From contig CAYLXA010000001.1 of the NCBI GenBank assembly GCA_964387845.1, positions 288,001 through 352,000 of the forward strand: a stretch of DNA of 64,000 nt. Reading direction: 5' to 3'. Position 1 is the first letter of the stretch. Each line of letters opens with the position of its first letter. The translations under genes were made by a program, and so were the position numbers. Below are positions 6,852 to 60,798 of this stretch, piece by piece. The notes below the pieces were generated by a model, which worked only from the letters and a program-made list of their open reading frames with translations, had not been told where the DNA came from and did no database searches. Origin of the DNA: an uncultured bacterium. GTDB taxonomy: Bacteria > Omnitrophota > Omnitrophia > Omnitrophales > Abzuiibacteriaceae.

Positions 6852-6968
6852 CCAAGGGTTTGTGAATCAAATGGAAAAACAGGGTCAGGTGCCAAGGGTC
6901 ATGGGTCAAGGCACAAATGAACGGTTACTCTTGCCTTGACCCTTGCTACTTGCCCCTTGACCCTAAGA
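6852..6968. repeat. cluster of CCTTGACCC / GGGTCAAGG palindromic units, including an 11-bp-stem hairpin (gggtcaaggca ... tgccttgaccc)
   Basis: ccaagggtc, gggtcaaggc and ccttgaccc (twice) are visible between the nrdJ stop and the SDR start. Confidence 0.4.
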
Positions 6969-12139: not shown

Positions 12140-12205
12140 TTTTAAGTCGTAAGTGGTAAGGGCTAAGTTATTCGATCGCTTAACACTTACCACTTATCAC
12201 TTATC
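12140..12205. repeat. GTAAGT-heptad hairpin element, copy 1 (family i)
   Basis: aagtcgtaagtggtaag ... cttaccacttatcactta: tandem (N)GTAAGT units followed by their inverted complement. It fills the whole mnmE-folC gap and overlaps the folC stop. Confidence 0.55.
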
Positions 12206-13541: not shown

Positions 13542-15104
13542 TTAATGTTTGAAATGACGTTCGCCGGTAAAAACCATGGCAATGCCGTAATGATCGCAGG
13601 CCGCGATAACTTCCGAATCTTTAATCGAGCCGCCCGGCTGAATGATGGCACGGATACCGTTCTGATGGGCGACTTCGATATTATCCGGCATCGGGAAAAA
13701 CGCATCACTCGCAAGCATGCTTCCGCGCGACCATGATTTTGCTTTTTCGCAGGCCAATTTGACGGCATCGACCCGGGACGTCAAGCCGCCGCCGATTCCC
13801 ACGGTCTGCGTTCCGCGCACAAGCACAATCGCGTTTGACTTCGTGACTTTGACGCAGCGCCAAGCAAAAAGCAGAGATGCCAATTCTTCTTTCGACGGCT
13901 TTGATTTCGTAACGGTTTTCAAATTTTTATTCAGCCTGGCTAAATGATGGTCAATCGGGTCGTCTCGGTCCTGCAGCAAAACGCCGCTTTTCACGTACCT
14001 CAAATCATACGGCCCGATGTGGCGAAACTCTGGCACTTCAATAACGCGGAGATTTTTACGCTCCTGGAATATTTTGAGTGCTTCTTTTGAAATTTTAGGC
14101 GCAACAACGACTTCGAAGAAAGTAAGTTTGGCAAAAAGCATCCGCGCAGCAGCGGCCGTCACTGGCTGATTGACGCCCACAATACCGCCGAACGCCGAAA
14201 GCGGATCGCAATCGACAGCCTGCGCAATCGCAGTTTCCAGATCCTGATTCACGGAAATGCCGGAAGGATTGTTGTGCTTCACCACACACGCCGCGGTTTC
14301 TTTGAATTCGCGCATGATGTCGACCGTTGCATCGATATCAAGAATATTGTTATATGAAAGTTCTTTGCCCTGAAATTGAGTAAACGAAAATTTGGGCGCC
14401 GAATCAAGCCGCGTGTAAAGCGCCGCGCGCTGGTGCGGATTTTCGCCGTACCTGAGCGTGGCGGATTTCTTAAACGGAACGCTCAAAAATTCAGGCAGGC
14501 CTTCTTCTTTCACAAATTGCTTTTCAAGATAATGCGCAATGGCATGATCATAAGCCGATGTATGCTGAAACGCTTTCAGAGCAAGTTTCTCTAGCGTTTC
14601 TGCCGATAATTTTCCGCCGTTCTTCTGCAATTCTTCAGCCAACACTGTGTAATCCGCTGCATCGGTAACGACCGCAACCGATTCGTGATTCTTCGCCGCC
14701 GAACGGATCATCGCCGGGCCGCCGATGTCGATATTTTCAATAGCTTCGGCCAGTTTCACCTTCGGATTTTTGACCGTTTCCTGGAACGGATAAAGATTGA
14801 TGACCACCATATCGATCGGCTGAATGCCGTGCTGTTTGGCTTGTTTGGCGTGCGATTTAAGGGAACGCCGGAATAAAATGCCGCCGTGAACTTTGGGGTG
14901 AAGGGTTTTGACGCGCCCGTCCATCATTTCAGGAAAGCCGGTAAGATCCGAGATATTTTTAACCTTGAGACGCGCTTTCTTGAGCGCCGCCTCCGTACCG
15001 CCGGTTGAAATCAACTCAACGCCTAATTTGGCAAGCGTTTTTGCGAAATCCACGACGCCGGTTTTATCGGATACGCTGATGAGTGCGCGTTTAATTTTTG
15101 CCAT
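13542..15104 (-). CDS. purH: bifunctional AICAR transformylase / IMP cyclohydrolase
   Basis: 520-aa ORF with an MGS-like N-terminal domain (MAKIKRALISVSDKTGVVDFAK) and an AICARFT domain. Confidence 0.9.
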   Translation of the reverse strand: MAKIKRALISVSDKTGVVDFAKTLAKLGVELISTGGTEAALKKARLKVKNISDLTGFPEMMDGRVKTLHPKVHGGILFRRSLKSHAKQAKQHGIQPIDMVVINLYPFQETVKNPKVKLAEAIENIDIGGPAMIRSAAKNHESVAVVTDAADYTVLAEELQKNGGKLSAETLEKLALKAFQHTSAYDHAIAHYLEKQFVKEEGLPEFLSVPFKKSATLRYGENPHQRAALYTRLDSAPKFSFTQFQGKELSYNNILDIDATVDIMREFKETAACVVKHNNPSGISVNQDLETAIAQAVDCDPLSAFGGIVGVNQPVTAAAARMLFAKLTFFEVVVAPKISKEALKIFQERKNLRVIEVPEFRHIGPYDLRYVKSGVLLQDRDDPIDHHLARLNKNLKTVTKSKPSKEELASLLFAWRCVKVTKSNAIVLVRGTQTVGIGGGLTSRVDAVKLACEKAKSWSRGSMLASDAFFPMPDNIEVAHQNGIRAIIQPGGSIKDSEVIAACDHYGIAMVFTGERHFKH

Positions 15105-15117
15105 TTTTGTTTCCTAA

Positions 15118-15212
15118 TTCCCTCTCCCTTTGGGAGAGGGCTAGGGTGAGGGATTTCTATAAATCCCACCACCCTCATCCTAACCTTCTCCCTCTAAAGA
15201 GGGAGAAGGGAT
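15118..15212. repeat. nested palindromic element, family ii (CCCTCTCCC-N3-GGGAGAGGG / GGGTGAGGG), copy A
   Basis: ccctctccctttgggagagggctagggtgaggg ... ccaccctcatcc ... cttctccctctaaagagggagaagg. It overlaps the 3' end of the PabC-like gene, whose C terminus reads PSPSLEGEG. Confidence 0.55.
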
Positions 15213-15989
15213 AAATCGTTTCATTAACCTGCTTGTTATAACGCCCGGAATTTCCGTGCCGATTTGACGGCCATCGAGCGACCGCACCGGCACGATGATA
15301 CCTGTTGAATTGGTTAAAAAGGCTTCATCCGCATTAAATACATCGTGACGCGTTAAGAAGGATTCTTCCGCCGAAATACCCAATTCGAGCGCATATTTTA
15401 ACACAAAACGGCGGACGACTCCATTCAGGATTCCGGCTGTGGGAGGCGTTTTCAACGCGCCTTCCTTCACCATGAAGAAGTTCCAGACTCCGGCCTCGCG
15501 TACATACCCGTCTGGCCCCAGATAAATCCGGTCAAACGAATCGGTACAATCTAAAAAAGCAAGCAGCCCATTGACCAGATCGCCTGATTTTGCTTCCGGC
15601 GGAACGCTGTTTGAGAGGTTGCGCCTCACAGCGGAAGTTTTAAGATCAACGCCTTCCCGATAAATCTTTTCGGGATAAGAGCGCACGGATACGATCGTGA
15701 AAATATTTTTCTCCGAAACAGCCAGACGAATTGAATGGTTTGGATTTTCTTTGGCGATTTCGGCAAGTTCTTTTTCAATCCGTTCACGTTCGGTGGGAAC
15801 TTCAATCCCTGAAGTTTTTGCGGATTCAAACAAACGGTCCAAATGTTCATTCAAATGCAGAATTTTACCGCTCCGGGATTGCATGGTTTCGAAAACGTTT
15901 AATCCAAGCTCCGCCGGCGATATTATAGGAAGCTCTGCCGGTTTTATCTGTTTTCCGTTGATAAAGAGAAGCATATCCGTAAGTGACAT
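15180..15989 (-). CDS. pabC: class IV (branched-chain / D-amino-acid type) aminotransferase-fold enzyme, probably aminodeoxychorismate lyase
   Basis: Fold-type IV PLP enzyme, 269 aa from ATG 15989 (the ORF track uses a TTG at 16007). pabB and folC in the same region support a PabC assignment. Confidence 0.55.
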   Translation of the reverse strand: MSLTDMLLFINGKQIKPAELPIISPAELGLNVFETMQSRSGKILHLNEHLDRLFESAKTSGIEVPTERERIEKELAEIAKENPNHSIRLAVSEKNIFTIVSVRSYPEKIYREGVDLKTSAVRRNLSNSVPPEAKSGDLVNGLLAFLDCTDSFDRIYLGPDGYVREAGVWNFFMVKEGALKTPPTAGILNGVVRRFVLKYALELGISAEESFLTRHDVFNADEAFLTNSTGIIVPVRSLDGRQIGTEIPGVITSRLMKRFIPSPSLEGEG

Positions 15990-16030
15990 GGGAAAAGTAT
16001 AAAGCAAAAAAACAGGGCTGACTATTCGGA

Positions 16031-19000
16031 TTATGCGGAGTAGAAAACCTGCATTTGCGCGCGGAACTTGCCGACCAAATATGCCGCGGCTGATAATACA
16101 TGGTCCACAAACGCTTGGTTCCAGATTATGACCTTGTCTGCGATTTTTTCAAGAAATGGAACGGCAACCGCGTCATCTGAAACACCGATAATGGCCATGG
16201 AAAGACCGAGATTTCTAAGTTCGGCGCGCGCCTTGTGGTAATCCTCAACGGGAACAATCCTATTTTTTGGATTTGCAATGGTTGCATTAATCTCGTCGAT
16301 GACGCGAAGCTCTGCGCGGTTTGTCACGATCACCATGTAAGAACCGTAAACATCCGAAAGATTCCGGCCAACCACAGCCAGACTTCCCTTTTCGCCGAAG
16401 AAAGCGTTACGCGTAAACACTTTCCCTTCCCGCATCTCTGATCGATTTTGAAGTGCTGTAACAATCTGATTGTCAAAACTGCGAGCGTTTGACACAATCC
16501 GGCGCATTTCGCTTCTCGCTACCGGTGCAATCTCAGTTTGCAAATCTCGGAATAACGGATTTTCTTTGACTTCAACTCTTCCTTTAGCAATGGTTTTTTC
16601 AGTCTTTGCAATGACGCGGAAATTAAAAACTGTTTCACCCGAAACTTCGGACTGCACCTTGGCCATAATTAGCGGGAGCCCCAAAACTTCGCTTTGCACC
16701 TTGTCTCCGATTTCAGTATTATTGAAAGCATCTGCTTGATTTAGAATCGACTTTTCAATCGCGCTTTGAAAATCGATTGGTTTGATTTTTTGAAGGCTTT
16801 CCGGCAGCAATTCCTTGTTAATTTCGCCTTCCAAATGAATACTGACATCATAACGGCTTCCAATTGTCTTTTGAGCGATTGTAAAATTCCGGTGTTCGCT
16901 TGTTAGCGATTTGACGCCCGCCTGCTCATAAAATTGAGCATCAATAACGGGAACCTCGCGGTCTGCGATCTCTTCTAAAATCCGGACCGCGCGATGAATA
17001 TATTTAGCGTGCCGGAAACTTCTTCGCTCATTTTCGCTCAGAGTCAAACTCCTGTTTTTCATCTGCAATTCCGAATACCAGCGCCGGAATAACTTCATAA
17101 TTTGAATCAGCGAAAGCGGCTGGTTAGCGCCGAGCGGATTGGATGAATTTTGTTCGTAAATTCTATTAATATCTGTCTCGCTTTGAGCTGTCCAGCTTGA
17201 TTTTTCCTGATTTAAAACCGCTTTAAGTACCGGAATATAAAAACCTGTGTCACGCTCAATCCACCAATTAAGCACATAAAGAGCGGCGAAGCGCGCAGAT
17301 TGGCGCAGCATATCCGGATTAAAGTTTTTAGGCGCTACTTCAATGAGCGGTTTCCATTCATCAACCGGAATAACCGGTTCAGCTAAGTATTGAAGCAGTG
17401 TTTCGAGGCCAACCTCATTTCCTTTTCCAAGCTCATCGGCTCTTGTCTTCCGGATTGTAAAATTAGGATGCGACAAATTTCTAAGAAGTTTTTGCACCGA
17501 ACGCAGTTCTGATTTTTGGCTGCCGGCATCAGGCCCAGGCATCGGCTCTGTCAATTTTTGGAAACGTTCGGCCAATTCGGTTTCTGAGATTTTAAACATT
17601 TCGTCAACAAACGCTTCGGAACCGCCAAGCTCCCCTCCGTCTTCTCCGAATAAACGGACTTCGACTAACTCATGAAACGCAACGGCAAATCTTTCGGCCG
17701 ATATCCTTTCTTCATCCGTTTTGAATTCAAACTGAAAAGCGAGACGCGTATCCTTAACCGCTTCAAGCGTCATCAAGGCCATCGGATTATCCGCTTCGAT
17801 CCATTCAGCACTCCCTTTGTTCAGATTTTTGATCTTAACAGAAACATTTTTTGCTAGGGCGGCTTGCGCCATTTCGACAATGAACATCGCTGGACTCGCA
17901 TGGACACCTTGCCGGTTCTTGACCGTAACATTGATCTCAATGCTGTTACTTTCCCCTTCCCGCAATTCCGACATGTTTCTATCAGTCGGCGTTACGGACT
18001 TTTTATATTCATTAATCTGATGATCGAGAAAAGCTTCGTAACTATCAATGGCCTGGCTTGTTTGCGCCAACCACTCTTCTTCTTCTTTCAATAATAGGCC
18101 ATGTTCTTCTTTCATTCCCTTCAAAGCAGACTTTGCTTTTCGAAGCTCTGGTAATATTCTGAGATAATAATCGTTCGCTTCCGCGGCTAGAGAATTGCCT
18201 CGATCCGAAACTGACAAAATAAAGCTGCTGAAACGATTCAACAAAACTTCCGTGCGGCTCAATAAAATCTTAATTCTGAGCTGCTGTTCATCCAAAGCGA
18301 TTCGCCTCGGTTTGATAAGAGAATAATAAAGGAGCGCTCCGACTCCTATGCCTATCGCGCCCGCTGAAATACCGATAACGGTATAATTTCGTAATTCAGA
18401 ACGATGTTTAGGCGGACGGGGAAAACTTTGAAAAGGCCCCCTGCGCGCAGCGCGGACAGCCTGAATTCTCGCCGTCACTTCTTCAATAGTATCTAAGTCA
18501 CCGGCTAATTCTGCGTTATGAAGCTCGACTTCCAATCTTGCCAAATCCGTCGAGTGATGCGATTGGTCTACAGCAAACGGAAGCTCGATCGGCTCCTCAT
18601 TTTCCAAATCATTGCGCAGTTCCGAACGGACACCGGATTTTTCGCGAGGCGGCTGTTCAGATTTCGGCGGAACCGGGATCCATCCTTCCCACCGGCGGTA
18701 AACATGCGTAGGCCGCGTCCCTACTTCATTGGAAATATTTTTACCGCGCACGCCATGAACCTGATGGGCTTCATCACGCCGTAAAACTTCGGCTCTTTGT
18801 GCACGAAAATAATCATCCGTAAAATGAGTGATTTCGCCGGTTTTTAAGCCCGCGCGGCGCCAGTCAATGTGCCCTTCGGGATGAACAACACGCATATCTT
18901 TCTTCAGTACCTGCAAAGCTCCGGAAAATGCGGCGTGATTAAACAAAATAACTGTTTTCCCGCGATACTGCTCGTTCATGCGTTTCCAAAAAGCGGCGGC

Positions 19001-22000
19001 GCGGATGATTAAATGGGCAAAACTTTCGCCATGCTCAGGTTTCGCCAAAACACTCCACTTTTGATAACTTCGCGCGGCCTTGAATTGTTCCCGGCCAAAC
19101 TGCGCCTTAATTTGCTCATTGGTGAGCCCTTCCCATTCGCCTTGAAAAATTTCTTTTGTATCGGGATCAATCATCACTTTCAGTTCAATTCCTAATTTTT
19201 CACGTACCAACCGGATAAATGGTTCTGCCGTATCCCGCACACGCCCAAGCGGATTAATGATCACCACAAACTGATCCGGATTTGCTGTGATTTGGTCTTT
19301 AAACTTTTCAAATAATTTTTCAGCGTCAGCTTGCGCTTGCACGCGCCCTTTTGGCGTCAACTGCGCGCCTTCGTTATCCATACCGCTTCCCTGAAACCTC
19401 TTTCTCCCTGTTCTTAGCCCTTCCGCAATGATGTGAGTTTCTCCGTGGCGGATAACGTAAAGATCCAGATCAAGCGCCGGTGGGAAATAAGGCTCTTTAT
19501 AAAAAAGCTGCCCGGTCGATTGATTGACCCAAAAACCCATTTGTTGCAATGTTTCGGAAACATTTTTTCGCAATTCCACCCTCGCCTTCATTAATAAATC
19601 CGGCTGTATTGCACTGGTCGGAACCACAAGTTTGCCGTTTTCCCAATAGACCAGCGCACTCAAAAACTGGAACATGACCGGATCATGTTTTCTCACAAAA
19701 TCAGGGTCAAGCCAGTAAAGAGACTGGGCTTCAAAGAAAAACTCTCGCGCAGAAACAATGCTGTATCGGCTCAAAAACTGCGTTTCAATTTCTTCTTGAG
19801 AATAATCAAGCACCTGCTTCTTTTTCCCAAATTGCCTTTCAAGTGCCTGCAGCCTAGTCTCATAAATCCGTTTTGCAATCTGATAAACTGCTGTTTTATC
19901 GTGTGGAATGTTCACAATAGAGAGTGGTAAATTTTTATTCGCAAAATGCTCTAAGCGCTCAAAGTTAATCGGCAGCGCATACTGATTATGCTCAACGAGC
20001 GTTTCCGCAAGTTCGTGAGTCAGGAGCCGTTCTAAATAAGTAAAGTCCTTATCCCTCACCTTCAAAAATTCATCGCTCACTGGCCCGTCATAGGAGATCG
20101 GATGATCGCCCGCATAAAGTGAAAGAAAGATCGATTTAACATTGGACAGCACAGGATGAAGGGAGTGATAGGTAACGCCTCCCAAATGATCTCCGTTGCG
20201 TCTTACGATAGAACGCGCAATAAATACTTGGGCATTGAGCATTTTAAAAAGCGGTGCAATTGCAATGCCGGCCCTATGGCTTTCAAGGAAATGATTGAGC
20301 TGGCCATATAACTTACGCGCTAATCTCCAGTCGGTTTCACTGTTTAATCCATGCAATACATCAGTCCGAATATGTGCAGAAGAGCCTTGTAGATAACCCA
20401 AAACAATTTGACGCAATTCCGCCCTTGCCCCCTTTGAAGAAACATTTTCATGATCCGCTGGGGCCGAGGGGCTTTCTTGTAGTTCTTGCAAAATTAATAT
20501 CACTTCGTCCGGAAGTCCTAATGCGCTTAAAGCATCCTTGGCGCTTTCGAGCTGATGAAAACTGAAATGATCCGCAAATCTTTCTGCGCGAGACTTATTT
20601 CCCAGCAACCCTGTCAAAAATGGGATAGCCAACTCACGAAAATGAATGCACCATGGCTCCGCTTGAAGAATCCGGTTGGTCAGATAAAGCAGTTTTTTAA
20701 GCTGTTTAAACGATAAATCGCTATCTTGAAGCGCGGCACGGATTGCGTCATGGCCTGCATCCAACAACATAGTCTTAGGGGCAGCACTTTCCGCTTCGGA
20801 ATTCCTGAGCTCGGAACGTATGGCTCTAGATTTAATAGCAACGCTGCCGAGATACACATTGCCGCTCTGGTGATAAAGAAGCGGGTTTTCGTGGCCATCC
20901 ATGCTGATAACGTCTCCATCCGCGATATCACGGCCGGCGATGAGCCAAAGATGCTTTTCCGGCTGGAACACCATGTCCGGAACGCCATAAACGGCCGAAA
21001 TGCCTTCTTTCTGCGCCAGCGTTTCCGCATGCACTGAAATGGTCTTCGCTAAAATATGAACCCCTTTTGGAATCCGGTTAATCATTTCGGGATTCACTCT
21101 GTCCAAGATCAAAATAACGCCGTCAACATCCGCTCGGGGATGAGAAACAAGTTCGCCCAAAAGCTTTTCCGCTGCTTCTATCGAATTAGCCGCCAAACCG
21201 CGAATCGCACCGCCGCTCACGCCATGGCCGCGCGCAATCGGCTGATTGTCAGTCGAGTCGGCAAATTCCGGATATTGATCCGTCACAAAATCATCATTGC
21301 TTTGGACAATCCATATCTTTCCGCGCTCAATCGTGAATTCAAACTGCTGGTTGTAACGGAAAATGTTCTTGAGCTTACGCGCGTACTCGAACACTTGTGC
21401 GTAAAGCTCCGGCTGCAATGCTTCAAATGTTTGTTCATCCGGCCGGATTCGCTCACCATTTCCGATTAAAATGTAATTTTGGCCGGCACGGCTCATCAAT
21501 TGATCGCCGATCGAGTGAAACCGAAATTTACCTTGGAGCACGTCATGGCCGTCCGGAAGTGTTCTCAAAACTGCGTGCCCCGCGCCTGAAATTTTCCCGT
21601 CATCAGTCGGCTTTAAATTTCCGAAAACGCCTTTCTGCAGAATAACGACCGTTCCCCACTCTTGCGAAATCTGATGCCGTGTACGATACGCGCGTGCCTC
21701 TTCGGAGTCCCACGATGCATAAACCGCTTCGACTGCCATCATGACCTGATCCATCATGTCGTTTGGAATTATTTTGCCGTGCCGCGCCACGATTGCTTTG
21801 CACTGTTCCACCACTGCCTTCATGCCGTCTGCCGACAAATCTTCCTTTTCTTTAACATTCAAAACCTGCTCAAATTCCGCCTCAGGAATACCGAGCACAT
21901 TGATCGAAAATGACCGGATAAATTCCGCGTAGGTGTCATACGCAAACCACGCATCGCCGCTTTTTTGGGCAAGCGCTTCGGCTTCCGCGTCGTTCATGCC

Positions 22001-34084: not shown

Positions 34085-35578
34085 TTATCTGTTGGAAAGG
34101 GCTTCGACAAGCGCTTTTCCCTTGTGAAGCGTCTCTTGATACTCTGCGGCGGGTTTTGAATCATGCACAATACCGGCGCCGACTTGGAAGTAACCCTTTT
34201 GCTGATTAATCACGATTGTGCGGATCACAATGTTGAGATCCAGATCACCATCAAAACCAAAATAGCCAATGGAGCCGGTATAAATCCCGCGTTTGAAAGG
34301 TTCCAGCTCTTCGATAATTTCCATACAGCGAATCTTTGGGCATCCCGTGATAGTTCCGCCCGGGAACATCGCGCGTACCAAATCAAATTGATCCGCATCA
34401 TCACGAAGCTCGCCCTTTACGTTTGAGACAATGTGCACAACGTGTGAATATTCCTCAAGCGCCATCATCTCGCTCACGCGCACCGTGTGCGGCTTGCACA
34501 CGCGCCCCAAATCATTGCGTTCCAGATCTACTAGCATAATGTGCTCGGCGCGCTCTTTATCATTTGAGATAAGTTCACTGCGCAGTTTCTGATTTTGCAC
34601 TGCCGTTTTCCCGCGCGGCCGGGTCCCTGCAATCGGGCGCGTTTCGCACGCACTTCCCCGCTTTTTGATGAGGCGCTCCGGCGAAGAGCTAATCACCTGC
34701 AAATCGCCGAGACGAAAGAAACTGGAAAAAGGTGACGGATTGATATCCCGCAAACGTTCATAGAGTTTCTCAGAACTTCCTGAGAAATCAAACGAGAACC
34801 GCTGTGAAAGATTGGCTTGATAAATATCGCCTGCCTCTATGTAATCTTTGCCTTTTTTGACAATCGCTTCGAATTTTGATTTTTGAATATCAGATTTAAA
34901 ATTCTGAATTTGTATTTGTCCATTTTGATAAAGCGTTTGATTGAGTTTCGAGAGAGTCTCTTGAATCCAATTTTGACTTTCACTTAGCTGATCCTCAAAA
35001 CTCTTTCTCTCGGAAGGCATTAAATTGCTGATGAGATAAATCGCTTTCTTTGATTCATCGTAAGCGATCAAATTTCGGATGAATAGGAAAACAGCTTCAT
35101 CCAGTTTTTGGTCATTCTTCGCCCGGTTGGGCAGGCGTTCAAAATCCCACGCCAAATCATAGGAAAAATAACCAACCGCGCCGCCTAAAAATTCAGGGCC
35201 GGCGTTCCATTTTCTTCCGCGATAAGTTTTAAAGAGCTTGCGCATTTCCAGAAGAAAATCACCGCGTTTTTTTACGACCCTCACCCTGCCCTCTCCCTCA
35301 GGGAGAGGGAAACGCGAAGCGTGGGTGAGGGATTTTTCGATCGAAATATTTTTACCCTGCTTTCGCAAGATTAAAAACGGGTCGCTGGCCATATAGGAAA
35401 ATGTACCGGTTTTCTGGTGAAAGCGCGCGCTATCCAGGATAAACGAATTTTCGGAAGACTGGATCCTGCGGAAAGTTTCCCAGGAACTCAACGAAGCGGG
35501 GATTTTTTGGATCAGCGGAACAATGAAGCCTTTTTGGAAATATTTTCGAAGTGTCGTGATGGGCAGAACGTTATTCAT
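34085..35578 (-). CDS. pabB: chorismate-binding enzyme, aminodeoxychorismate synthase component I (PabB) / anthranilate synthase component I family
   Basis: C-terminal chorismate-binding signature (PIAGTRPRG...ERAEHIMLVDLERNDLGRV...GGTITGCPK). Assigned PabB-like because pabC-like and folC genes are nearby and no trpG/trpD is present. Confidence 0.65.
   Translation of the reverse strand: MNNVLPITTLRKYFQKGFIVPLIQKIPASLSSWETFRRIQSSENSFILDSARFHQKTGTFSYMASDPFLILRKQGKNISIEKSLTHASRFPLPEGEGRVRVVKKRGDFLLEMRKLFKTYRGRKWNAGPEFLGGAVGYFSYDLAWDFERLPNRAKNDQKLDEAVFLFIRNLIAYDESKKAIYLISNLMPSERKSFEDQLSESQNWIQETLSKLNQTLYQNGQIQIQNFKSDIQKSKFEAIVKKGKDYIEAGDIYQANLSQRFSFDFSGSSEKLYERLRDINPSPFSSFFRLGDLQVISSSPERLIKKRGSACETRPIAGTRPRGKTAVQNQKLRSELISNDKERAEHIMLVDLERNDLGRVCKPHTVRVSEMMALEEYSHVVHIVSNVKGELRDDADQFDLVRAMFPGGTITGCPKIRCMEIIEELEPFKRGIYTGSIGYFGFDGDLDLNIVIRTIVINQQKGYFQVGAGIVHDSKPAAEYQETLHKGKALVEALSNR
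35278..35331. repeat. family ii nested palindromic element, copy B, inside the pabB-like coding frame
   Basis: ccctcaccctgccctctccctcagggagagggaaacgcgaagcgtgggtgaggg. It is translated in frame as FPLPEGEGRVRVV near aa 85-100. Confidence 0.5.
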
Positions 35579-36887
35579 GCCGGTACATCAAAAACCCTGA
35601 GCCCAACTTCGGGTAAAAATAAGTAGACTTTTGCGGCATCAATTCTCCCGAAGCGCAAATAGCCTGCATCACTTTGGCTTCAATCGGCGGCACAATCACA
35701 GCCGCGTCAAACTTCTTGGAGCGTACGCCTTCGAGTGCCTCATCCGAAAAGCGCGTGTATTCGAGAAAATGCTCGAGATTTTTATCATCAACACCAAGAT
35801 GTTTCAAAACCAAATGTGAAACCTGCGCGACTTCAAGCCGGTACCAAATGTCGGGTTTTCCGGCCGGCATCTCCGCGCGTGCTTTTTGAATGTCTTTGAT
35901 TTTAAATAAAATCGATTCACCGGGAAAACAAACCGCGAAAGCGTCCCTGATTTTTCCCTGCGCGAGTTCTTTTACTTCCGTCTCGGAAATTTTTCTCGAG
36001 TCAAATAAGGGCGAAAGGATTTGCGACAATTCTGACGCGCTTACTTTTTTGATGTTCTTGAGCTGCCGATGGATGGGAAAAATTAAAAGCCCTTCATCTT
36101 CCAATTCCACAAGCCCCATTAAGCAATAATCGGAAGGCTGCAAGCTGCCAGCTTCAGGCTTCAAGCTTGAAGTTTGCAATTTGGAGCCTGCAGCTTGAAG
36201 CTTGCGGCTTGCGGCTTGTTCTTGGCTATAGCGCAAAGCGGTTTCATAACGGTGATGGCCATCCGCGATTAAAACCTGCTTATCGGAAAACATTTTTGAA
36301 ATCTGCGTTTTGTCGGATGAATCCGAAACCGCCCAAAGTTTGTGCGCTTCACCGTCAGAAAATTTAAATTCGTATAACGGTTTTTGTTTCTCAAATTTCT
36401 TTCTCAGTTCCTGGGCGGTTCTTTCAGAATCTTGATAAAGCCCATAAACCGGCGAAATGTTGGTTTTGATTGCTGAGAGCAGCTTGAACCGATCTTCCTT
36501 CGGGCCGGAATGCGTTTTTTCGTGCGGCAAAATCACTTTTGATTCAAAAGGCTCCACTTGAAACAGACCAAAAATCACGACGCGCGTCTTGATGCGGCCC
36601 GATTCTGGGTCTTTGAAGATGGTTTCGTAAAGATAAAAACTCTCTTTTGTGTCTTTTTCGAGAATTTGCTTCCTCAGCCATTCGTTCAGAAATTCAGAAG
36701 CTTTTTGATATTTCACACTCGCATCTTCTTTACCGTATTCGATACGAATGATGTTGTAGGGACTTTTACCGTAAAGCGCTTCCTGCTCGGCAGGTGAAAT
36801 AATATCGTAAGGCGGAGCAACCACTTGATCCATTTTGACGGACCCGGAATTGTAACGCAGTGCGCGGAAAGGTTTGATAATAGCCAT
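35571..36887 (-). CDS. DUF1015-family protein
   Basis: Conserved PHEKTHSGP and ADGHHRYETA motifs. Contains a low-complexity palindromic insert at 36136-36212. Confidence 0.55.
   Translation of the reverse strand: MAIIKPFRALRYNSGSVKMDQVVAPPYDIISPAEQEALYGKSPYNIIRIEYGKEDASVKYQKASEFLNEWLRKQILEKDTKESFYLYETIFKDPESGRIKTRVVIFGLFQVEPFESKVILPHEKTHSGPKEDRFKLLSAIKTNISPVYGLYQDSERTAQELRKKFEKQKPLYEFKFSDGEAHKLWAVSDSSDKTQISKMFSDKQVLIADGHHRYETALRYSQEQAASRKLQAAGSKLQTSSLKPEAGSLQPSDYCLMGLVELEDEGLLIFPIHRQLKNIKKVSASELSQILSPLFDSRKISETEVKELAQGKIRDAFAVCFPGESILFKIKDIQKARAEMPAGKPDIWYRLEVAQVSHLVLKHLGVDDKNLEHFLEYTRFSDEALEGVRSKKFDAAVIVPPIEAKVMQAICASGELMPQKSTYFYPKLGSGFLMYRHE
36136..36212. repeat. palindromic low-complexity insert (GCTTCAAGCTTGAAGC and similar) inside the DUF1015 coding frame
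   Basis: gctgcaagctgccagcttcaggcttcaagcttgaagtttgcaatttggagcctgcagcttgaagcttgcggcttgcggcttg, translated in frame as KLQAAGSKLQTSSLKPEAGSLQ. Confidence 0.45.
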
Positions 36888-36976
36888 ATTAACGTAAATT
36901 CAAATCTCAAATTTCAAAATAATTTTGATATTTGAAATTTGAATTTGTTTTGAGATTTGATATTTGAATTTTGAAA
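36888..36976. repeat. AT-rich array of ATTTGAAAT / TTTCAAAT direct and inverted repeats
   Basis: aaatctcaaatttcaaaataattttgatatttgaaatttgaatttgttttgagatttgatatttgaattttgaaatt. The region fills the gap between the tRNA-binding-protein stop and the DUF1015 start. Confidence 0.45.
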
Positions 36977-40070: not shown

Positions 40071-40739
40071 TCAAATGACCCCTTTCATTAATGTTTCTTT
40101 AACTTTCTTGGCATTTTTTAGTCCTTCGTCAATCAAAGAAATAAAATACTCAATTTCTCCATTTAAAGTACTAGGATAAAAATCTCCAACCCGACAGCAT
40201 CCTTCACAAATTCCATCCATAGCTTGAACGTAAGCGGTTTCAGCAAATGTAAGCCATTCACGCGTTTCATTCCATGTTTCCTTCCCATCATGAGTACGCC
40301 AGGGGAAATTATGAACACGTTGAATATTCCGATGAGGATTTATCTTGTCACTAATATCTTTTATTTTTTCCTCGTACTCATCAAAATGAGATAAAAACTC
40401 TTTTCGTTGTTGTTTTAACCTATCTTTTGAGAAAGTCTGTCTTTCTAATTTTAGTTCAATATTTTCTTCTGAAACTTCTTTGCTTTTTTGCATTAAATTC
40501 CATAAACTAGCTTCACTAGAACGACCAAAAATCTTTCCTAAAGCGAGAATGTACTTTGTTTCCAAAGCATCTCGAATAAAGCTGAATAAGCCACCAAATT
40601 CTCGTTCAAATCCTTCTGATTGAACAAGCCCGTTATTCCATTTGAATAATAAAGCATGGAAAATGTTAGCCTCGCAAAGATCTCTGCTTACACAGGTTTC
40701 TATTACCTTCAGTGAATCTTGAACTTCATCCATCATCAA
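40071..40739 (-). CDS. hypothetical protein; possible HEPN-like candidate (R-x5-H in PHRNIQRVH), partner of the ORF6N gene
   Basis: 222-aa ORF, noticeably more AT-rich than its neighbours. No confident motif. Confidence 0.4.
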   Translation of the reverse strand: MMMDEVQDSLKVIETCVSRDLCEANIFHALLFKWNNGLVQSEGFEREFGGLFSFIRDALETKYILALGKIFGRSSEASLWNLMQKSKEVSEENIELKLERQTFSKDRLKQQRKEFLSHFDEYEEKIKDISDKINPHRNIQRVHNFPWRTHDGKETWNETREWLTFAETAYVQAMDGICEGCCRVGDFYPSTLNGEIEYFISLIDEGLKNAKKVKETLMKGVI

Positions 40740-40832
40740 CCTCCAATAAATTCATGATTCTGTACCAATTATAAAAGCATTCATATTTTATGCCCCCAAT
40801 TCGCAGAAGACAACCTGGTTCTCGAAATAGAA

Positions 40833-40908
40833 CGCCCTCACCCCCTCCGGGCCTAAGGCCCGATAGGGCCGGAGGCTCACCCTACCCCTCTCCCAAAGGG
40901 AGAGGGAA
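40833..40908. repeat. family ii nested palindromic element, copy C
   Basis: gccctcaccccctccgggcctaaggcccgatagggccggaggctcaccctacccctctcccaaagggagaggg. Confidence 0.5.
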
Positions 40909-40959
40909 AAACAAAGGAAGAATCTGGCTTTGTGGAGGCGGCTCTCGGAATCCTTCAGA

Positions 40960-41070
40960 GCTTGGTCCCCCACCGTTTTGTTTCGCAAAGCGAGGCAGCG
41001 GGGGTCTGAAGGATGAGAGCGCAGGCGGTCGAGCCCGCGGGAGGCGAGAACCGCCGGCGCCGGAACAAAG
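40960..41070. repeat. family iii element, copy 2, followed by further GC-rich palindromes
   Basis: ggtcccccaccgttttgtttcgcaaagcgaggcagcgggggtctgaaggatgagagcgcaggcgg. The spurious 94-aa plus-strand ORF 40790-41074 translates repeat DNA. Confidence 0.5.
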
Positions 41071-41081
41071 CTAGATTCTGA

Positions 41082-41963
41082 CTAAATTAGTGCTAATCCG
41101 ATTAATTTGTAAATAAGGCGCGCGACGAGGAAATTGGGGGCGTGAAGCTTTTCTATCGGTGATAATTCCATGACATCAAAACCAACAATTTTTCGTGACT
41201 TGGCGATTTCCCTAAAAAGCGCCATGGCTTCATGCCACAAAAGACCGTTGGGTTCCGGTGTTCCGGTTGCGGGCATAATCGAAGGGTCAAAACCATCTAC
41301 ATCGATCGTAATATAAACTTCATCCGTTAAATTGGTCAGCGCGGTGTGAATCCAATCTTGAATTGCCATCTTTTTGATTTCGTGCGCGTATAAAATGTTT
41401 ACGTTTTGCTTCTTGGCGACCCTGATTTGATCCGGTGAAATGCTGCGGATACCGACTTGCGAAAGCGGGCACTTTCCTGCAATGCGCGCCGCAATTGAGG
41501 CGTGCGAATAAGGCGTTCCCTCATAAGAATCGCGCAAATCCGCGTGAGCGTCGATCTGCAGAACGGACATTTTGGGATATTTCTTCAAGTGTGATTTGAT
41601 TAACGCGCTTGAAATAGAATGTTCACCGCCGATTCCGACCAGGAATTTATTTTCCGAGAGAATTTCATCCGATCGCTTTTCCAATCTTTCGATAAATTGC
41701 TTCGGGTCTTTTTCCTTTGCGGCAGGTTTGAAGCTTGGAAGTGTCGCAATCGATACCTTTTTACATGTTTCAACACCCAATTCCTCATCGTAATACTCCA
41801 CATAACGAGAAGCATCAATAACAGCTTTGGGGCCGCGGGATGTGCCTTTTCCGTAAGAGACCGTTCCTTCATAAGGAACCGGCAAAACAGCAACTTTGGA
41901 TTTGGTGTAAGCGGGTTCGGGATCCTGGCCTAAAAAGTTAAATGGGGCTTTTTCGTGCTGCAT
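41082..41963 (-). CDS. speB: agmatinase (ureohydrolase family)
   Basis: Mn-binding motifs GGEHSIS, DAHADL and SIDVDGFDP. Confidence 0.85.
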   Translation of the reverse strand: MQHEKAPFNFLGQDPEPAYTKSKVAVLPVPYEGTVSYGKGTSRGPKAVIDASRYVEYYDEELGVETCKKVSIATLPSFKPAAKEKDPKQFIERLEKRSDEILSENKFLVGIGGEHSISSALIKSHLKKYPKMSVLQIDAHADLRDSYEGTPYSHASIAARIAGKCPLSQVGIRSISPDQIRVAKKQNVNILYAHEIKKMAIQDWIHTALTNLTDEVYITIDVDGFDPSIMPATGTPEPNGLLWHEAMALFREIAKSRKIVGFDVMELSPIEKLHAPNFLVARLIYKLIGLALI

Positions 41964-46029: not shown

Positions 46030-46120
46030 CAGTGTTAAGTTGTAAGTGATAAGTTTTAAGTTATTCAATTACTTACCACTTATAACTTATCACTTACCAC
46101 TATGTTACAAACTTACAAAA
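46030..46120. repeat. GTAAGT-heptad hairpin element, copy 2 (family i)
   Basis: gttaagttgtaagtgataagttttaagtt ... acttaccacttataacttatcacttaccac ... acttac. It fills the sucC-start to gamma-CA-stop gap. Confidence 0.55.
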
Positions 46121-49815: not shown

Positions 49816-49818
49816 TTT

Positions 49819-49908
49819 TCAGTCGTAAGTTGTAAGTGGTAAGTCGTAAGTTAATAAAATGGTAAGTTTTTGCTTCTTACTTACCACTTATCACTTACGA
49901 CTTACAAC
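49819..49908. repeat. GTAAGT-heptad hairpin element, copy 3 (family i)
   Basis: cgtaagttgtaagtggtaagtcgtaagtt ... cttacttaccacttatcacttacgacttacaac. Spans sdhC start to mdh stop. Confidence 0.55.
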
Positions 49909-57253: not shown

Positions 57254-59038
57254 CTACGAACGAACTTTATGATAGCGGCTTCTTAATAGCAAGAGAAAAG
57301 CAACATCTGCCGCTACCACGGCGGAAACATACCCCACACCACCGCCGCCAAAACCATAACTATGAAGCCCGGCCGCTAAGACAAAATTCACGCCGTACCA
57401 GGCCATGATCACCGTCAAAAAGCAGACCGCGCACCAAAACGCGGTCGCGAATGAATCCAGCCAGCCGGCAGTTCGCCCATGCATAACCGCCAAATACGCA
57501 AGTAACGCAATCAAAGCCCAGGTTTCCTTCGGATCCCAGCCCCAAAACCGGCCCCATGAATAATTCGCCCAAACGCCGCCCAGGATTGTTCCGGCAGCGA
57601 GCAAAATAAGCCCAATTTGAAGCGAACGATAAAGAAAAGTAATAAGCTCATCTAACGTTTTATTATTTTTTTTCTTAAAAGCATAGTGAAACACAACCAC
57701 ATGCGCGACACCCCAATTGAGCAAAAACGCACCATAGCCGAGCGTAATCGTCAGCACATGAACTGTGAGCCAAAAATTGCTGCGCAAAACGGGAACCAAA
57801 GGCGAAATCGACTGGTCCAAAACCGCCGGTAAATTTTCGCTGATCAAGAGCGCCAGAATGGATACGGACGCTGCGATCATCGGAATCAAATAGGACCTGT
57901 AAAAAGCAAAAAGAATGAGCGAGAAAAGCACAACACTCCACGACACCCAAATGACTGACTCATACATGTTCGTCACGGGCGGACGCCCGGCGATTAAACA
58001 ACGCAGCACAAAACCCAACGTATGAACCGCAAAAGCCGCGGTAAAAAATGAGAAAGCGATTTTATTGGCGCGTTTTTTATTTCTCAGTGTCAGCCAGATC
58101 AGAAGGCTGCCTAAATAAATTGCCCATGCCGTATGAAACGGGCGAAATTTGAGATAGAAAAGCTCGTAATGAATCAACGTCCGGTCGATGATGATGTCGC
58201 GCGATTCCAGTAATTTTGTAAGCGCATTGGCGAAAAATGAAGCAGATACGCCGGCCATTTCGATTTTTTCATCCCGCAAGCGGCCGAGGAGAAATGAAAG
58301 TGAGTTACTCGCTTCCTTCACATTCGCCGCGGGATACATGGTTTCCAAAATGGAAATACCGTGATCGCTCGCAAGCCCCTCAAGCGGAACCCACCCCGCC
58401 TGTGGATCATCGGGATGCGGAATAAAGCCCGGCATTTCTCCGCGCCCGATAGCCTGAAACAGACGCGCTCTGCTTCCGAGTTCAATCATTGCCTTTTCGT
58501 ATTCGTTTAGTTTTTCTTTTCTGTCCTGCTTAGCCCTTACTTCACCTGTTCTTGCCGTAAAATTCAAATCGGCGAGAACAAGAGAAGGTGCGATTCTATT
58601 GTTTTCCAGATCCGCGGAGAAATCCTTTCGTAACTCGGGATTTGAAACAGGTAAAATAGCCTTCGCGCTCCAAATATCGGGGGCCGCAATCCATCGCCAC
58701 ACCAGTTCGGTTGGCTCCATTTTTTGAAAATGTGTTTTGCCGGTCATATAGAGGACGATTTCTTTCGCGAAACTCTCAAACGGCTTGACGCGGCCGCCCT
58801 GCTGAACCGGAATTCCACCCAAAACTTCGTGCGCATTACCTTCGGATTGATTGGCAAAGGATTGGGGCGAGAAAAACATCGCCAAGAGAATGACTAAAGA
58901 AAGACTGACAATAAATTTACAATACACCCCCTCACCCTTTCCCTCTCCCTGAGGGAGAGGGGAATTGTTTAACTCACTCCCTCTCCCGCTTGCGGGAGAG
59001 GGCTGGGGTGAGGGTTGATTATTTAGAAATTGTCTCAT
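57254..59038 (-). CDS. ccsA: cytochrome c biogenesis protein CcsA (system II heme-handling WWD-domain protein) with a long N-terminal periplasmic domain
   Basis: WGRFWGWDPKETWALI (WWD motif) and conserved His residues. ATG 59038 overlaps the ccsB stop (TAATG) but would translate a palindromic repeat as MRQFLNNQPSPQPSPASGRGSELNNSPLPQGEGKGEG. An in-frame GTG at 58927 would instead start directly at a signal peptide (VYCKFIVSLSLVILLAMFFSPQSFA). Confidence 0.75.
   Translation of the reverse strand: MRQFLNNQPSPQPSPASGRGSELNNSPLPQGEGKGEGVYCKFIVSLSLVILLAMFFSPQSFANQSEGNAHEVLGGIPVQQGGRVKPFESFAKEIVLYMTGKTHFQKMEPTELVWRWIAAPDIWSAKAILPVSNPELRKDFSADLENNRIAPSLVLADLNFTARTGEVRAKQDRKEKLNEYEKAMIELGSRARLFQAIGRGEMPGFIPHPDDPQAGWVPLEGLASDHGISILETMYPAANVKEASNSLSFLLGRLRDEKIEMAGVSASFFANALTKLLESRDIIIDRTLIHYELFYLKFRPFHTAWAIYLGSLLIWLTLRNKKRANKIAFSFFTAAFAVHTLGFVLRCLIAGRPPVTNMYESVIWVSWSVVLFSLILFAFYRSYLIPMIAASVSILALLISENLPAVLDQSISPLVPVLRSNFWLTVHVLTITLGYGAFLLNWGVAHVVVFHYAFKKKNNKTLDELITFLYRSLQIGLILLAAGTILGGVWANYSWGRFWGWDPKETWALIALLAYLAVMHGRTAGWLDSFATAFWCAVCFLTVIMAWYGVNFVLAAGLHSYGFGGGGVGYVSAVVAADVAFLLLLRSRYHKVRS
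58927..59006. repeat. family ii nested palindromic element, copy D (two inner CCCTCTCCC/GGGAGAGGG palindromes inside a CCCTCACCC/GGGTGAGGG outer pair)
   Basis: ccctcaccctttccctctccctgagggagaggggaattgtttaactcactccctctcccgcttgcgggagagggctggggtgaggg. Confidence 0.55.
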
Positions 59039-60798
59039 TAGATTTTCCTCATTTTGGGGTCACTGGTCTTAAGCGTCGAATATTGTTTTAAATAGAATAA
59101 CAAAATAATTCCGACTATCATCACAATCGAACCCGCATATTTAACCGGGATACCGGGGTCGCGCGCAACTGTAAAGACGGAAATATCCGGCTCGCCGGGC
59201 GTCACTTGATACGCAGATTGATACACTTTGAAACTACGATGAACGAGCGGTTCATTCATCTGAATCAATTGATCGCGGCTGATTCCCTTCGCTACGTCTT
59301 TCAAAGTGACCTGGCTTTTGAAACTGGCGGGCCGGTTGGTGCCGGGATCCGTATCCATTAAAAAATCATTCAATTGAATCGTGAAGCCCAGCGGTTGCGT
59401 CTCAAGCCCATAAACAAAGTGCCAATCATGGCCGCCTAACTGAGTCCGTTCAACCTGGCCCTGCCGAAGCCATAAATTTTGAGATTCATTTCCGTCCGAT
59501 AGTTCGATTTGAATGACGCGAGTTGCGCCTGTGCGCTCTGAAGCGAGAGGAATCGGAGAAAATGAACGTTCTACTTCGGCATGATGATAAAAAGCATCAA
59601 CACTGAATTTAAAATCCATCCATCCGGTTTCAATTTGTTTGCCGATTTCGACAATGCCGTCCGTAAGCAAATCGCCCTTTTTAACTTGATAGCGCGGTAA
59701 ACCGTCCGGATTATAAATGAACCGAAGTTCGTTCTTTGAAGCCGCTTGATCCGCTTGGCCGGCCATTTTCATCGCAATCCGCATTCCGGAAGCGCTTGGC
59801 GCCATGCCATGCACAGTCGGAAAATCGGGAAAATTCGCGAAAATGGTATGCTGTTCGTTCAATCCATCGCCTTCCAAGATCAATTCCACCGCGGGGTTCC
59901 GCCACTCCTTGGAACGGTCAATCAATTTGTTTTGATCTACAATCGCATCACGCAAAATACGGTTGAGCTTAGCGCGGATTTTAGTGCCTTGAAGCGTAAA
60001 TGATTTTGGTTTGTCGGATTCCTTGATCGGAACCTGAATGATTTTACCCGATTTGAGCATAAATTCTAAATGCGCAAATTCATCTCCCGATTTTTTCTTC
60101 GGTTTCTCGATGTCAATCGGTTGGCGCGCAAAATGAATGACGGCGGCACCCATGGCTAGCTGATTTTTTTCGGGATTATCCAAGAAAAGCCAATCGTTGG
60201 TTTGCGCCATCGATCCGGATAGTGAAAATTGAATGGCGGGAGACCCTTTGGCGGATTCTTTGACAGATTCTCCCAAAACCGCTTTCGGGAAATCCTGCAA
60301 AACATGGATCTGAACGGAGCTTTTCGGCTTCAATTCCAATTTCCGGCGCCCGGACCACGGAAACACGCTTGGTTTATAATGCATGACAAAATGTTCTTTC
60401 AAATCGGGAGAGAAAATTTCAAGTATCGGATTCGCCAAAGTCATACGGCTTTCGGAATCGCCTTCCTGAATCGACACCTGCCCTTCAATCCCGAAACGCT
60501 GCGTGATCAAAGAACCAATGAGAATCAAGATGATTCCGAGATGGGTCAAAAGAAAACCGATGTGCTGCTTGCGCCACGGCCAACGGCTGATTGCGGATGC
60601 GGCTAAATTAATCGCCAGTAAAACCAAAACAATCGAAAACCAAGGAGTATAATAAATCAAGCGCTGGGCGGCTTCCGCACCGTGATACGACTCGATGAAG
60701 GTGCCGGCAGCCACAATAATCGCGACAGTTACAATAAGCAGAACCGCGCACCAAAGCGAAGCAAAAAATTTGAATAGGTCGGACAATAGATGATTCAT
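59038..60798 (-). CDS. ccsB: cytochrome c biogenesis protein CcsB / ResB
   Basis: 586 aa, N-terminal TM helices, large periplasmic domain, C-terminal TM; ResB family pattern. Immediately upstream of ccsA. Confidence 0.8.
   Translation of the reverse strand: MNHLLSDLFKFFASLWCAVLLIVTVAIIVAAGTFIESYHGAEAAQRLIYYTPWFSIVLVLLAINLAASAISRWPWRKQHIGFLLTHLGIILILIGSLITQRFGIEGQVSIQEGDSESRMTLANPILEIFSPDLKEHFVMHYKPSVFPWSGRRKLELKPKSSVQIHVLQDFPKAVLGESVKESAKGSPAIQFSLSGSMAQTNDWLFLDNPEKNQLAMGAAVIHFARQPIDIEKPKKKSGDEFAHLEFMLKSGKIIQVPIKESDKPKSFTLQGTKIRAKLNRILRDAIVDQNKLIDRSKEWRNPAVELILEGDGLNEQHTIFANFPDFPTVHGMAPSASGMRIAMKMAGQADQAASKNELRFIYNPDGLPRYQVKKGDLLTDGIVEIGKQIETGWMDFKFSVDAFYHHAEVERSFSPIPLASERTGATRVIQIELSDGNESQNLWLRQGQVERTQLGGHDWHFVYGLETQPLGFTIQLNDFLMDTDPGTNRPASFKSQVTLKDVAKGISRDQLIQMNEPLVHRSFKVYQSAYQVTPGEPDISVFTVARDPGIPVKYAGSIVMIVGIILLFYLKQYSTLKTSDPKMRKI

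Follow-up and report, generated by a model that had tools for sequence, protein, structure and literature searches.

The TMECO motif, earlier named BoxC or PIT (potential intrastrand triplex) element, was first found in Escherichia coli in the 1990s and has the form 5'-CCCTCNCCC-N3-6-GGGNGAGGG-N3-GGGNGAGGG-3' (Holder et al., Nucleic Acids Res 2015, PMC4666352). The 4.6-Mb genome of E. coli K-12 holds 23 copies, CCCTCTCCCTGAGGGAGAGGGTTAGGGTGAGGGG being one example, which are 'always located intergenically', and the published census of the motif covers 262 proteobacterial genomes (PMC4666352). Pairs of motifs in E. coli undergo partial deletion that retains the potential to form a hairpin, termed the 'palindromic effect'; no triplex was detected in vivo, and no association with phages or mobile elements was found (PMC4666352). 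A second description comes from Enterobacter sp. 638, where 100 hairpins of the form CCCTCTCCC-XX(X)-GGGAGAGGG often lie at gene 3' ends and were presumed to act in transcription termination (Taghavi et al., PLoS Genet 2010, PMC2869309). Here, we describe repeats of this type in a 64-kb stretch of DNA from an uncultured Omnitrophota bacterium (contig CAYLXA010000001.1, positions 288,001 to 352,000), hereafter the window, which has ~46% G+C and nearly all of its genes on the minus strand. Homologues of the three window proteins used as queries come, in every case where the source is named, from Candidatus Omnitrophica or Omnitrophota.

Four loci in the window, designated copies A to D, very probably hold copies of the BoxC/PIT/TMECO repeat, present as selfish or neutral DNA inserted in or beside genes. 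The repeat family itself is known; the new details, which are modest, are its occurrence in the host phylum Omnitrophota and its in-frame copies within genes. The repeat unit (32–36 nt) consists of three blocks: a 9-bp C-rich block (CCCTCTCCC), its 9-bp G-rich complement (GGGAGAGGG) across a loop of 3–6 nt, and, after a spacer of 2–4 nt, a third G-rich block (GGGTGAGGG). The opposite strand reads CCCTCACCC-N-CCCTCTCCC-loop-GGGAGAGGG. Units usually form inverted pairs of ~86–100 bp, and the elements of the window span 54, 76, 86, and 100 nt, with a pair taking up ~86 nt. The pattern CCCTCTCCC-N2-8-GGGAGAGGG occurs exactly at five positions (15120, 35289, 40886, 58941, and 58979) where 0.00 are expected from 100 shuffles; CCCTCTCCC by itself occurs 10 times (0.18 expected) and CCCTCACCC six times (0.20 expected). 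Three units (A1, D1, and D2) match the published TMECO pattern exactly, with zero expected, while unit B, whose loop 2 is 2 nt long, and unit C, whose third block reads GGGTGAGcc, match a slightly relaxed form of it. The blocks are identical in four of these five units and the loops are variable (TTT, TGA, TTT, TCA, and GCTTGC for loop 1; CTA, CA, GTA, AAA, and CTG for loop 2). A search of the window tolerating up to three mismatches yielded no copies beyond the four loci.

A sequence-only reading of this DNA had proposed nested palindromes at the four loci. Their motifs were found at all four, in counts far above those in shuffled sequence, and the coordinates it gave were right to within a few bases, the limits of copy A and of the net insertion at copy D being set by comparison with relatives (Table 1). 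The repeat family went unrecognized in that reading, and what it took for an outer stem is the third block of two inverted BoxC/PIT/TMECO units. As single strands, copies A, B, and D fold far more stably than shuffled sequences do (z = −5.6, −5.1, and −6.4; copy C has z = −2.8), with computed energies of −59, −37.6, and −60.4 kcal/mol for copies A, B, and D. Copy A folds into three hairpins, the middle one formed by the inward third blocks, and copy B into a nested multibranch structure. Copy A is identical in an independent assembly (L008, Logan SRR15237813), and proteins 100% identical to the products of the pabB and ccsA open reading frames (ORFs), element-encoded peptides included, are recorded from a 409,037-bp NCBI contig; assembly error can therefore be discounted as the source of the copies.

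Filled and empty sites were compared with relatives at pabB, pabC/purH, ccsA, and folC, and the copies are insertion/deletion polymorphisms relative to close relatives, located inside operons and genes. Copy B lies within a pabB-like gene, where its unit is translated as F PLPEGEG RVRV. The PabB segment SLTHASRFPLPEGEGRVR is missing in 17 of the 19 aligned orthologues, among them P0002, which is 90% identical over ungapped columns; P0361, 88% identical in a separate comparison, also lacks it. In P0003 (80% identical), this site is occupied by a full inverted pair with an unchanged frame, CCCTCACCC-CTAC-CCCTCTCCC-GCAAGC-GGGCGAAGG...CCCTCTCCC-ATC-GGGAGAGGG-TTA-GGGTGAGGG. Because of this pair, copy B looks like a deletion derivative, that is, a partly deleted inverted pair that would have kept its hairpin potential; set against the pabB pair of the relative L001, such a partial deletion mirrors the 'palindromic effect' of E. 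coli (PMC4666352). The Pfam domain Anth_synt_I_N (residues 33–182) spans the insert and is followed by Chorismate_bind (residues 233–486). In an AlphaFold2 model of PabB computed from the orthologue alignment (mean pLDDT 87.3), the sole segment with pLDDT below 50 comprises residues 87–96, at the tip of a hairpin between strands 77–83 and 99–105, and the insert is thus predicted to fall in a disordered β-hairpin loop. Other orthologues in the alignment of 19 vary in length at this site.

Copy A separates two genes that overlap by 11–14 nt in the relatives L006 and L007. The filled/empty comparison shows that the window has exactly 100 nt inserted between ...AAACGATTT and AAACAAAAATGG, splitting pabC from purH, and the PabC-like protein, a class IV aminotransferase, therefore reads into the element and ends in IPSPSLEGEG*. 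Unit A2 encodes its last nine codons (PSPSLEGEG), and the stop codon TAG (15180–15182) overlaps loop 2 of that unit. The corresponding tails of PabC orthologues are ...RIHQDES* and ...KFKQNGQN*, which, like the empty sites, bears out the earlier proposal that the element is the source of this C terminus. On the other side, copy A directly adjoins the upstream region of purH and, judged from the sequence, supplies an AGGA 7 nt before the purH ATG. Aligning the orthologues of PabB and PabC, a check that the sequence-only reading had put forward, thus confirmed both segments as insertions missing from close relatives, and the one in PabB as a lineage-specific, in-frame insert. A 51-residue ORF (15023..15178, minus strand) also runs through copy A (...HPSPLPKGEGI...) and is probably spurious.

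Copy D, a complete inverted pair, lies at the junction of ccsB and ccsA. The ccsA ATG is conserved and translationally coupled to ccsB, whose stop it overlaps (TAATG or TGATG) in all three genomes compared (window, L004, and L005), and CcsA begins with MRK or MRQ. In L004, a signal-anchor helix follows directly after the start with no insert; relative to this empty site, the window has a net insertion of 38 codons. In L005, a different repeat family occupies the same place of ccsA, also in frame. One of the three minus-strand frames is open through copy D, namely the frame in use. An alternative GTG start for ccsA lies at 58927–58925, directly after the element. It had been left undecided earlier whether copy D forms an N-terminal extension of CcsA or the spacer between the two genes. 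Translation as a 38-residue N-terminal insertion is favoured, although not proven, because copy D lies downstream of the conserved ATG, the frame is kept, and the frame used is the only open one.

Copy C is intergenic and consists of one unit and an orphan block, set apart by a unique 32-nt hairpin that lies between direct copies of CTCACCC. This hairpin looks like a secondary insertion into the third block, which would have been accompanied by a 7-bp duplication. Downstream of the arginase-family gene, the window (40071–41080) and the syntenic region of L001 (4834–5946) have different genes: the 222-residue ORF of the window is preceded by copy C and a 340-nt spacer, while L001 has a 369-residue ORF only 3 nt after the arginase-family gene. 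This variable region adjoins the repeat. A 94-residue ORF on the plus strand (40790..41074) runs through copy C (...SPYPSPKGRGKNKG...) and is probably spurious.

Table 1. Repeat copies, their units, and associated genes in the 64-kb window, in order of position.
Feature	Coordinates	Strand	Description
purH	13542..15104	−	own ATG and 9 nt upstream of the ATG retained
Copy A	15113..15212		100-nt insertion; two three-block units tail to tail, third blocks inward
Unit A1	15120–15152	+	complete; CCCTCTCCC-TTT-GGGAGAGGG-CTA-GGGTGAGGG; exact TMECO
Unit A2	15172–15209	−	degenerate; CCTTCTCCC-TCTTTAGA-GGGAGAAGG-TTA-GGATGAGGG
pabC-like gene	15180..16007	−	class IV aminotransferase; Pfam PF01063
pabB-like gene	34085..35578	−	aminodeoxychorismate/anthranilate synthase component I; in-frame insert at residues ~84–101
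Copy B	35278..35331		54 nt within pabB; one complete unit, an orphan outer block, and a small hairpin
Unit B	35278–35309	− (coding strand)	CCCTCTCCC-TGA-GGGAGAGGG-CA-GGGTGAGGG; loop 2 of 2 nt
222-residue ORF	40071..40739	−	on one side of copy C
Copy C	40833..40908		intergenic, between the 222-residue ORF and the arginase-family gene
Unique 32-nt hairpin	40844..40875		CCTCCGGGCCTAAGGCCCGATAGGGCCGGAGG; between direct CTCACCC copies (40837–40843 and 40876–40882)
Unit C	40876–40906	−	CCCTCTCCC-TTT-GGGAGAGGG-GTA-GGGTGAGcc; third block degenerate
Arginase-family gene	41082..41963	−	on the other side of copy C
ccsA ORF	57254..59038	−	from the conserved ATG overlapping the ccsB stop (TAATG)
Net insertion at ccsA	58919..59032	−	114 nt (38 codons) relative to the empty site in L004; in frame, stop-free
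Copy D	58929..59014		complete 86-nt inverted pair; third blocks outermost; 17-nt central spacer
Unit D1	58929–58961	−	complete; CCCTCTCCC-TCA-GGGAGAGGG-AAA-GGGTGAGGG; exact TMECO
Unit D2	58979–59014	+	complete; CCCTCTCCC-GCTTGC-GGGAGAGGG-CTG-GGGTGAGGG; exact TMECO
ccsB/resB	59038..60798	−	stop and ccsA ATG overlap, as they do in L004 and L005

Three ORFs (pabC-like, pabB, and ccsA) read through copies. CCCTCTCCC, CCCTCACCC, and GGGAGAGGG contain no stop in any frame and GGGTGAGGG has a TGA in one, and since the three conserved blocks hold a stop in only one of six frames, the repeat would survive easily in coding DNA. The frames of the blocks without this stop yield peptides rich in P/S/L/H/T and in G/E/R/V (PLPxGEG, PSPxPSPxGRG, LSLxERxRVRV). 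Block by block, the frames give PSP/PLP/LS, PSP/PHP/LT, GRG/GEG/ER, and G*G/GEG/VR, which cover all the recurrent peptides; loops and spacers add stops, leaving one to three of six frames open in whole elements. Coding copies would survive only where the frame stays open and the added peptide is harmless, as may be the case in PabB (disordered β-hairpin loop), PabC (C-terminal tail), and CcsA (cytoplasmic N terminus, ahead of the signal-anchor helix). Frame keeping is best explained by survivorship, with internal copies needing a net length divisible by three, and this is preferred over an insertion mechanism because the insertion at copy A is 100 nt long. The idea that the element inserts in multiples of three was accordingly rejected as a property of the element, given this insertion and the element lengths; its companion, tolerance in loops, fits copy B, which falls in a low-confidence loop of the model.

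Comparable cases exist in other genomes. The folC gene of the relative L007 contains an in-frame unit (FPPHPPLSPFKGERGRGEE) inside its Mur_ligase_M domain, and folC of the window is without it. In a scan of GTDB with one genome per species, the exact motif was present in at least 120 stretches. Among the matches listed, the titled phyla include Pseudomonadota, Planctomycetota, Verrucomicrobiota, Chloroflexota, Acidobacteriota, Cyanobacteria and Vampirovibrionales, Nitrospirota, Myxococcota, Desulfobacterota, Elusimicrobiota, Omnitrophota (L038 and L097), Bacteroidota, and others, and the 36-mer of unit D2 has an identical copy in a Burkholderiaceae genome (L085). When 151 motif matches from other genomes were screened for ORF context, 34 had at least 60 open codons in frame on either side. 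Many of these 34 are from high-G+C genomes, in which long spurious ORFs are common, and for this reason we claim only in-frame cases supported by Pfam: among the 151, domains span the unit in a planctomycete NAD-dependent DNA ligase (LigA), whose adenylation domain is split in two, in a Radical_SAM_N protein of Polaromonas, and in a PMT_2 glycosyltransferase of Chloroflexota. Several of the top candidates by ORF context (L015, L045, L041, and L117) read as arginine-rich nonsense, and L074 and L098 were not counted as intragenic, the motif there lying between two domains that may come from two neighbouring genes. The exact three-block motif is also present in IMG/VR, in at least 120 predicted viral contigs, some of which may include host DNA or be prophages with host flanks. 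A literature search found no account of in-frame genic copies of the BoxC motif, most subscription journals being outside its coverage.

The link to E. coli extends to the whole pair. Of the 5426 complete E. coli genomes searched, 5179 contain matches to copy D, with a median of nine places each and almost always on the chromosome; the best reach 93% query coverage at 78.7% identity, and the best places listed have, with one exception, no annotated feature beneath them. Copy D, the L001 pabB pair, and the pair between wcaA and wzc of E. coli align block for block, including a central spacer of 16–17 nt. The window units thus share with BoxC/PIT/TMECO the three 9-nt blocks in the same order and spacing, inverted pairs of both kinds (third blocks outermost, as in copy D, or inward, as in copy A), loops more variable than blocks, presence/absence and partial deletion among close relatives, the lack of terminator features, and a dispersed, multi-copy, over-represented occurrence (four loci in 64 kb versus 0–0.2 in shuffles). 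The block composition (G.G:C and T.A:T triads) is that of the oligonucleotides studied by Holder et al. with circular dichroism and nuclear magnetic resonance; the folding computed here is Watson–Crick. Differences lie in the host, an omnitrophote outside the published proteobacterial census, in the density (~5 units in 64 kb versus 23 in the 4.6 Mb of E. coli K-12), and in position: whereas the copies of E. coli K-12 are exclusively intergenic, copy B is intragenic, copies A and D reshape gene termini, and a relative carries a copy in folC. With the hairpins of Enterobacter sp. 638, the window units have in common an identical 9-bp stem with a loop of 2–3 nt and a dispersed distribution, often in twos or threes near gene ends, but they lack a U-tract on the transcribed strand and occur within operons and genes.

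Other families of short repeats resemble the window units less closely. Rickettsia palindromic elements (RPEs) are reportedly inserted in frame in conserved protein-coding genes. They measure ~100–150 bp, are confined to Rickettsia and its relatives, and are tolerated in surface loops, giving a recurring peptide in unrelated proteins. In-frame insertion into conserved genes is likewise seen in pabB and in the folC of a relative, but the repeat described here is the BoxC/TM motif, with a unit of 32–36 nt and a distribution over many phyla, and has no known sequence relationship to RPEs, no RPE consensus having been aligned. REP/BIME sequences with their RAYT genes and MITEs such as Correia and ERIC are also short, dispersed, hairpin-forming, mostly extragenic, and polymorphic in insertion between strains. 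Unlike REP, the window units have no GTAG-type head, and no flanking RAYT gene was seen, no search aimed at RAYT having been made in the window or genome. Among these families (REP/BIME, MITEs, and BoxC/TM), only BoxC/TM has the third block, which is G-rich and not palindromic.

These features bear on what maintains the repeat. That the PLPxGEG-type segments are themselves selected, as a shared peptide motif or linker and not as by-products of a DNA repeat, is hardly credible: the same short peptides do recur, both within the window, where three unrelated proteins have them, and in other phyla, but what is conserved is the DNA and not the peptide. The blocks are read in several frames and on both strands (PSPxPSPxGRG, PLPxGEG, LSLxERxRVR) and also occur in non-coding DNA (copy C and the intergenic copies of E. 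coli), close orthologues are without the segments, and the PabB segment is disordered in the model; by contrast, a true peptide repeat, RSELR in a giant ORF of the window, uses varied codons. The empty-site comparisons therefore bear out the earlier claim that peptides of the PLPxGEG type recur in unrelated proteins through insertion of a DNA repeat. Selection acting on the flanking genes, with the elements serving as functional RNA or DNA signals (Rho-independent terminators, mRNA-stabilising hairpins, or protein-binding sites), is very unlikely, although a little more can be said for it. Hairpin stability is very high (−38 to −60 kcal/mol, z down to −6.4), a termination role was presumed for the same hairpin in Enterobacter sp. 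638 (PMC2869309), the strict conservation of the three blocks across phyla suggests some constraint, and copy A places its AGGA 7 nt upstream of the purH ATG. However, none of the four loci has a terminator-like site, that is, a G+C-rich hairpin with a U-tract, on the strand that is transcribed (minus), contrary to the terminator role suggested by the sequence-only reading, and a promoter role was rejected along with it for want of supporting sites on that strand. Termination would do harm at three of the four copies, which are either intragenic or placed where relatives have overlapping or translationally coupled genes. The units have no uniform orientation to transcription (plus strand for A1 and D2, minus strand for B, C, and D1), close relatives do without the elements, an Rfam scan of the whole window at the gathering threshold had no match, and experiments in E. 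coli found neither promoter nor terminator activity (cited in PMC4666352). From the hairpins without U-tract, the intragenic or coupled positions, the mixed orientation, the empty relatives, and the negative E. coli work, any regulatory role appears unlikely.

The preferred reading is that the repeats are selfish or neutral structured DNA that would be gained and lost whole or in part, without target-site duplication and with no regulatory function needed; for the deletions, the leading candidate would be the process proposed for E. coli, replication slippage or repair promoted by hairpins or triplexes. Several observations weigh against this reading or parts of it. Three 9-mers are identical across distant phyla, where a neutral element would drift, while loops vary and the central spacers of the full pairs compared range from 7 to 29 nt; some structural or binding-protein constraint is therefore likely. 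The pabB data fit equally well an ancestral gain followed by loss in the lineage of P0002 and P0361, or two gains at a hotspot, and the empty pabB alleles (ERGGKV) resemble those of outgroups (ERNGKV). The argument for translation of copy D consists of an open frame, a net length divisible by three, and the in-frame case of L005, and use of the GTG start would turn copy D into a spacer. Finally, no transposase linked to the element was seen in the window or the related loci examined, and three comparisons of filled with empty sites, like 13 full pairs taken from diverse genomes, showed neither a target-site duplication nor conserved flanks. The last point also counts against classical mobile DNA, in the form of insertion-sequence-derived MITEs or REP-like elements moved by a RAYT-like Y1 transposase encoded elsewhere or carried by phages, which we regard as a possible but rather unlikely origin. 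Such an origin would account for presence/absence polymorphism between genomes 88–90% identical, for the terminal inverted structure of the full pair, and for the wide range of phyla that carry the motif, with one 36-mer shared unchanged by Omnitrophota and Burkholderiaceae. Hairpins are the substrate of Y1 transposases (IS200/IS605 and RAYT type), whose insertions are free of target duplications. The matches in viral contigs suggest a horizontal route, but these contigs may contain host flanks; loops and central spacers differ within one genome, which is unexpected for recent bursts from a master copy, and no association with mobile elements was found in E. coli (PMC4666352). Likewise possible but rather unlikely is a broader proposal, for which RPEs are the compared analogue, that the ~86-bp inverted pair is a single pan-bacterial element, its three 9-mers held constant over very distant phyla by a conserved trans-acting factor or structure-dependent copying, and a general source of in-frame loop and terminus insertions in essential enzymes (PabB, FolC, CcsA, and LigA) across bacteria.

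The Omnitrophota filled and empty sites, at 88–90% identity, show directly the gain and loss of BoxC-type elements, whole or partial, and the sequence comparisons amount to unusually clean evidence for insertion, partial deletion, and in-frame reading of copies. Essential enzymes tolerate these elements in frame, in contrast to the E. coli account of a motif 'always' between genes (PMC4666352). The same 86-bp architecture in E. coli and in an uncultured omnitrophote sharpens the puzzle of BoxC function and spread and does not solve it. For annotation, gene callers read through the repeats, so that element sequence is called as protein termini (PabC), as N-terminal extensions (CcsA), or as spurious small ORFs; database peptides of the PLPxGEG type are best treated as repeat-derived.

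The giant ORF mentioned above (16031–33958, minus strand; 5975 residues) contains the motif (R/K/x)SE[L/M]R 17 times. A DNA repeat was rejected here, as each occurrence uses different codons, which makes RSELR a protein-level motif; situated between seemingly unrelated enzyme modules, it could be a linker or processing site of a polyprotein-like protein. The gene is also present in the relatives L001 and L006–L008.

Repeats of other families were observed in the window and its relatives. A DUF1015-family gene (35571..36887, minus strand) holds at 36137–36218 a palindrome of the CAAGCTGCAAGCT type, read in frame as AASRKLQAAGSKLQTSSLKPEAGSLQPSD, an apparent in-frame insertion of another repeat family. 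Further palindromic families are intergenic (12143–12203, 46038–46101, and 49813–49910; 6881–6964; 36896–36960), with arms built of ~6-nt periodic units (GTAAGT type, AAGGGTCA type, and TCAAATxTCAAA type). Orthologues from related Omnitrophota carry other palindromic families in frame at the same variable sites or termini, including folC of L006 (6362–7819), ccsA of L005 (10001–11779), and the pabB products P0003, P0004, P0008, P0042, and P0361; examples of such repeats are DSVILSEAKNQRS..., VIPVNAGIYNPDPRSKYAGMT, ARSECDEAIYGSEIVSALYKK, and LRGAKRRGNLRSEIAS. In-frame repeat insertion thus seems to be a general habit of this Omnitrophota clade.

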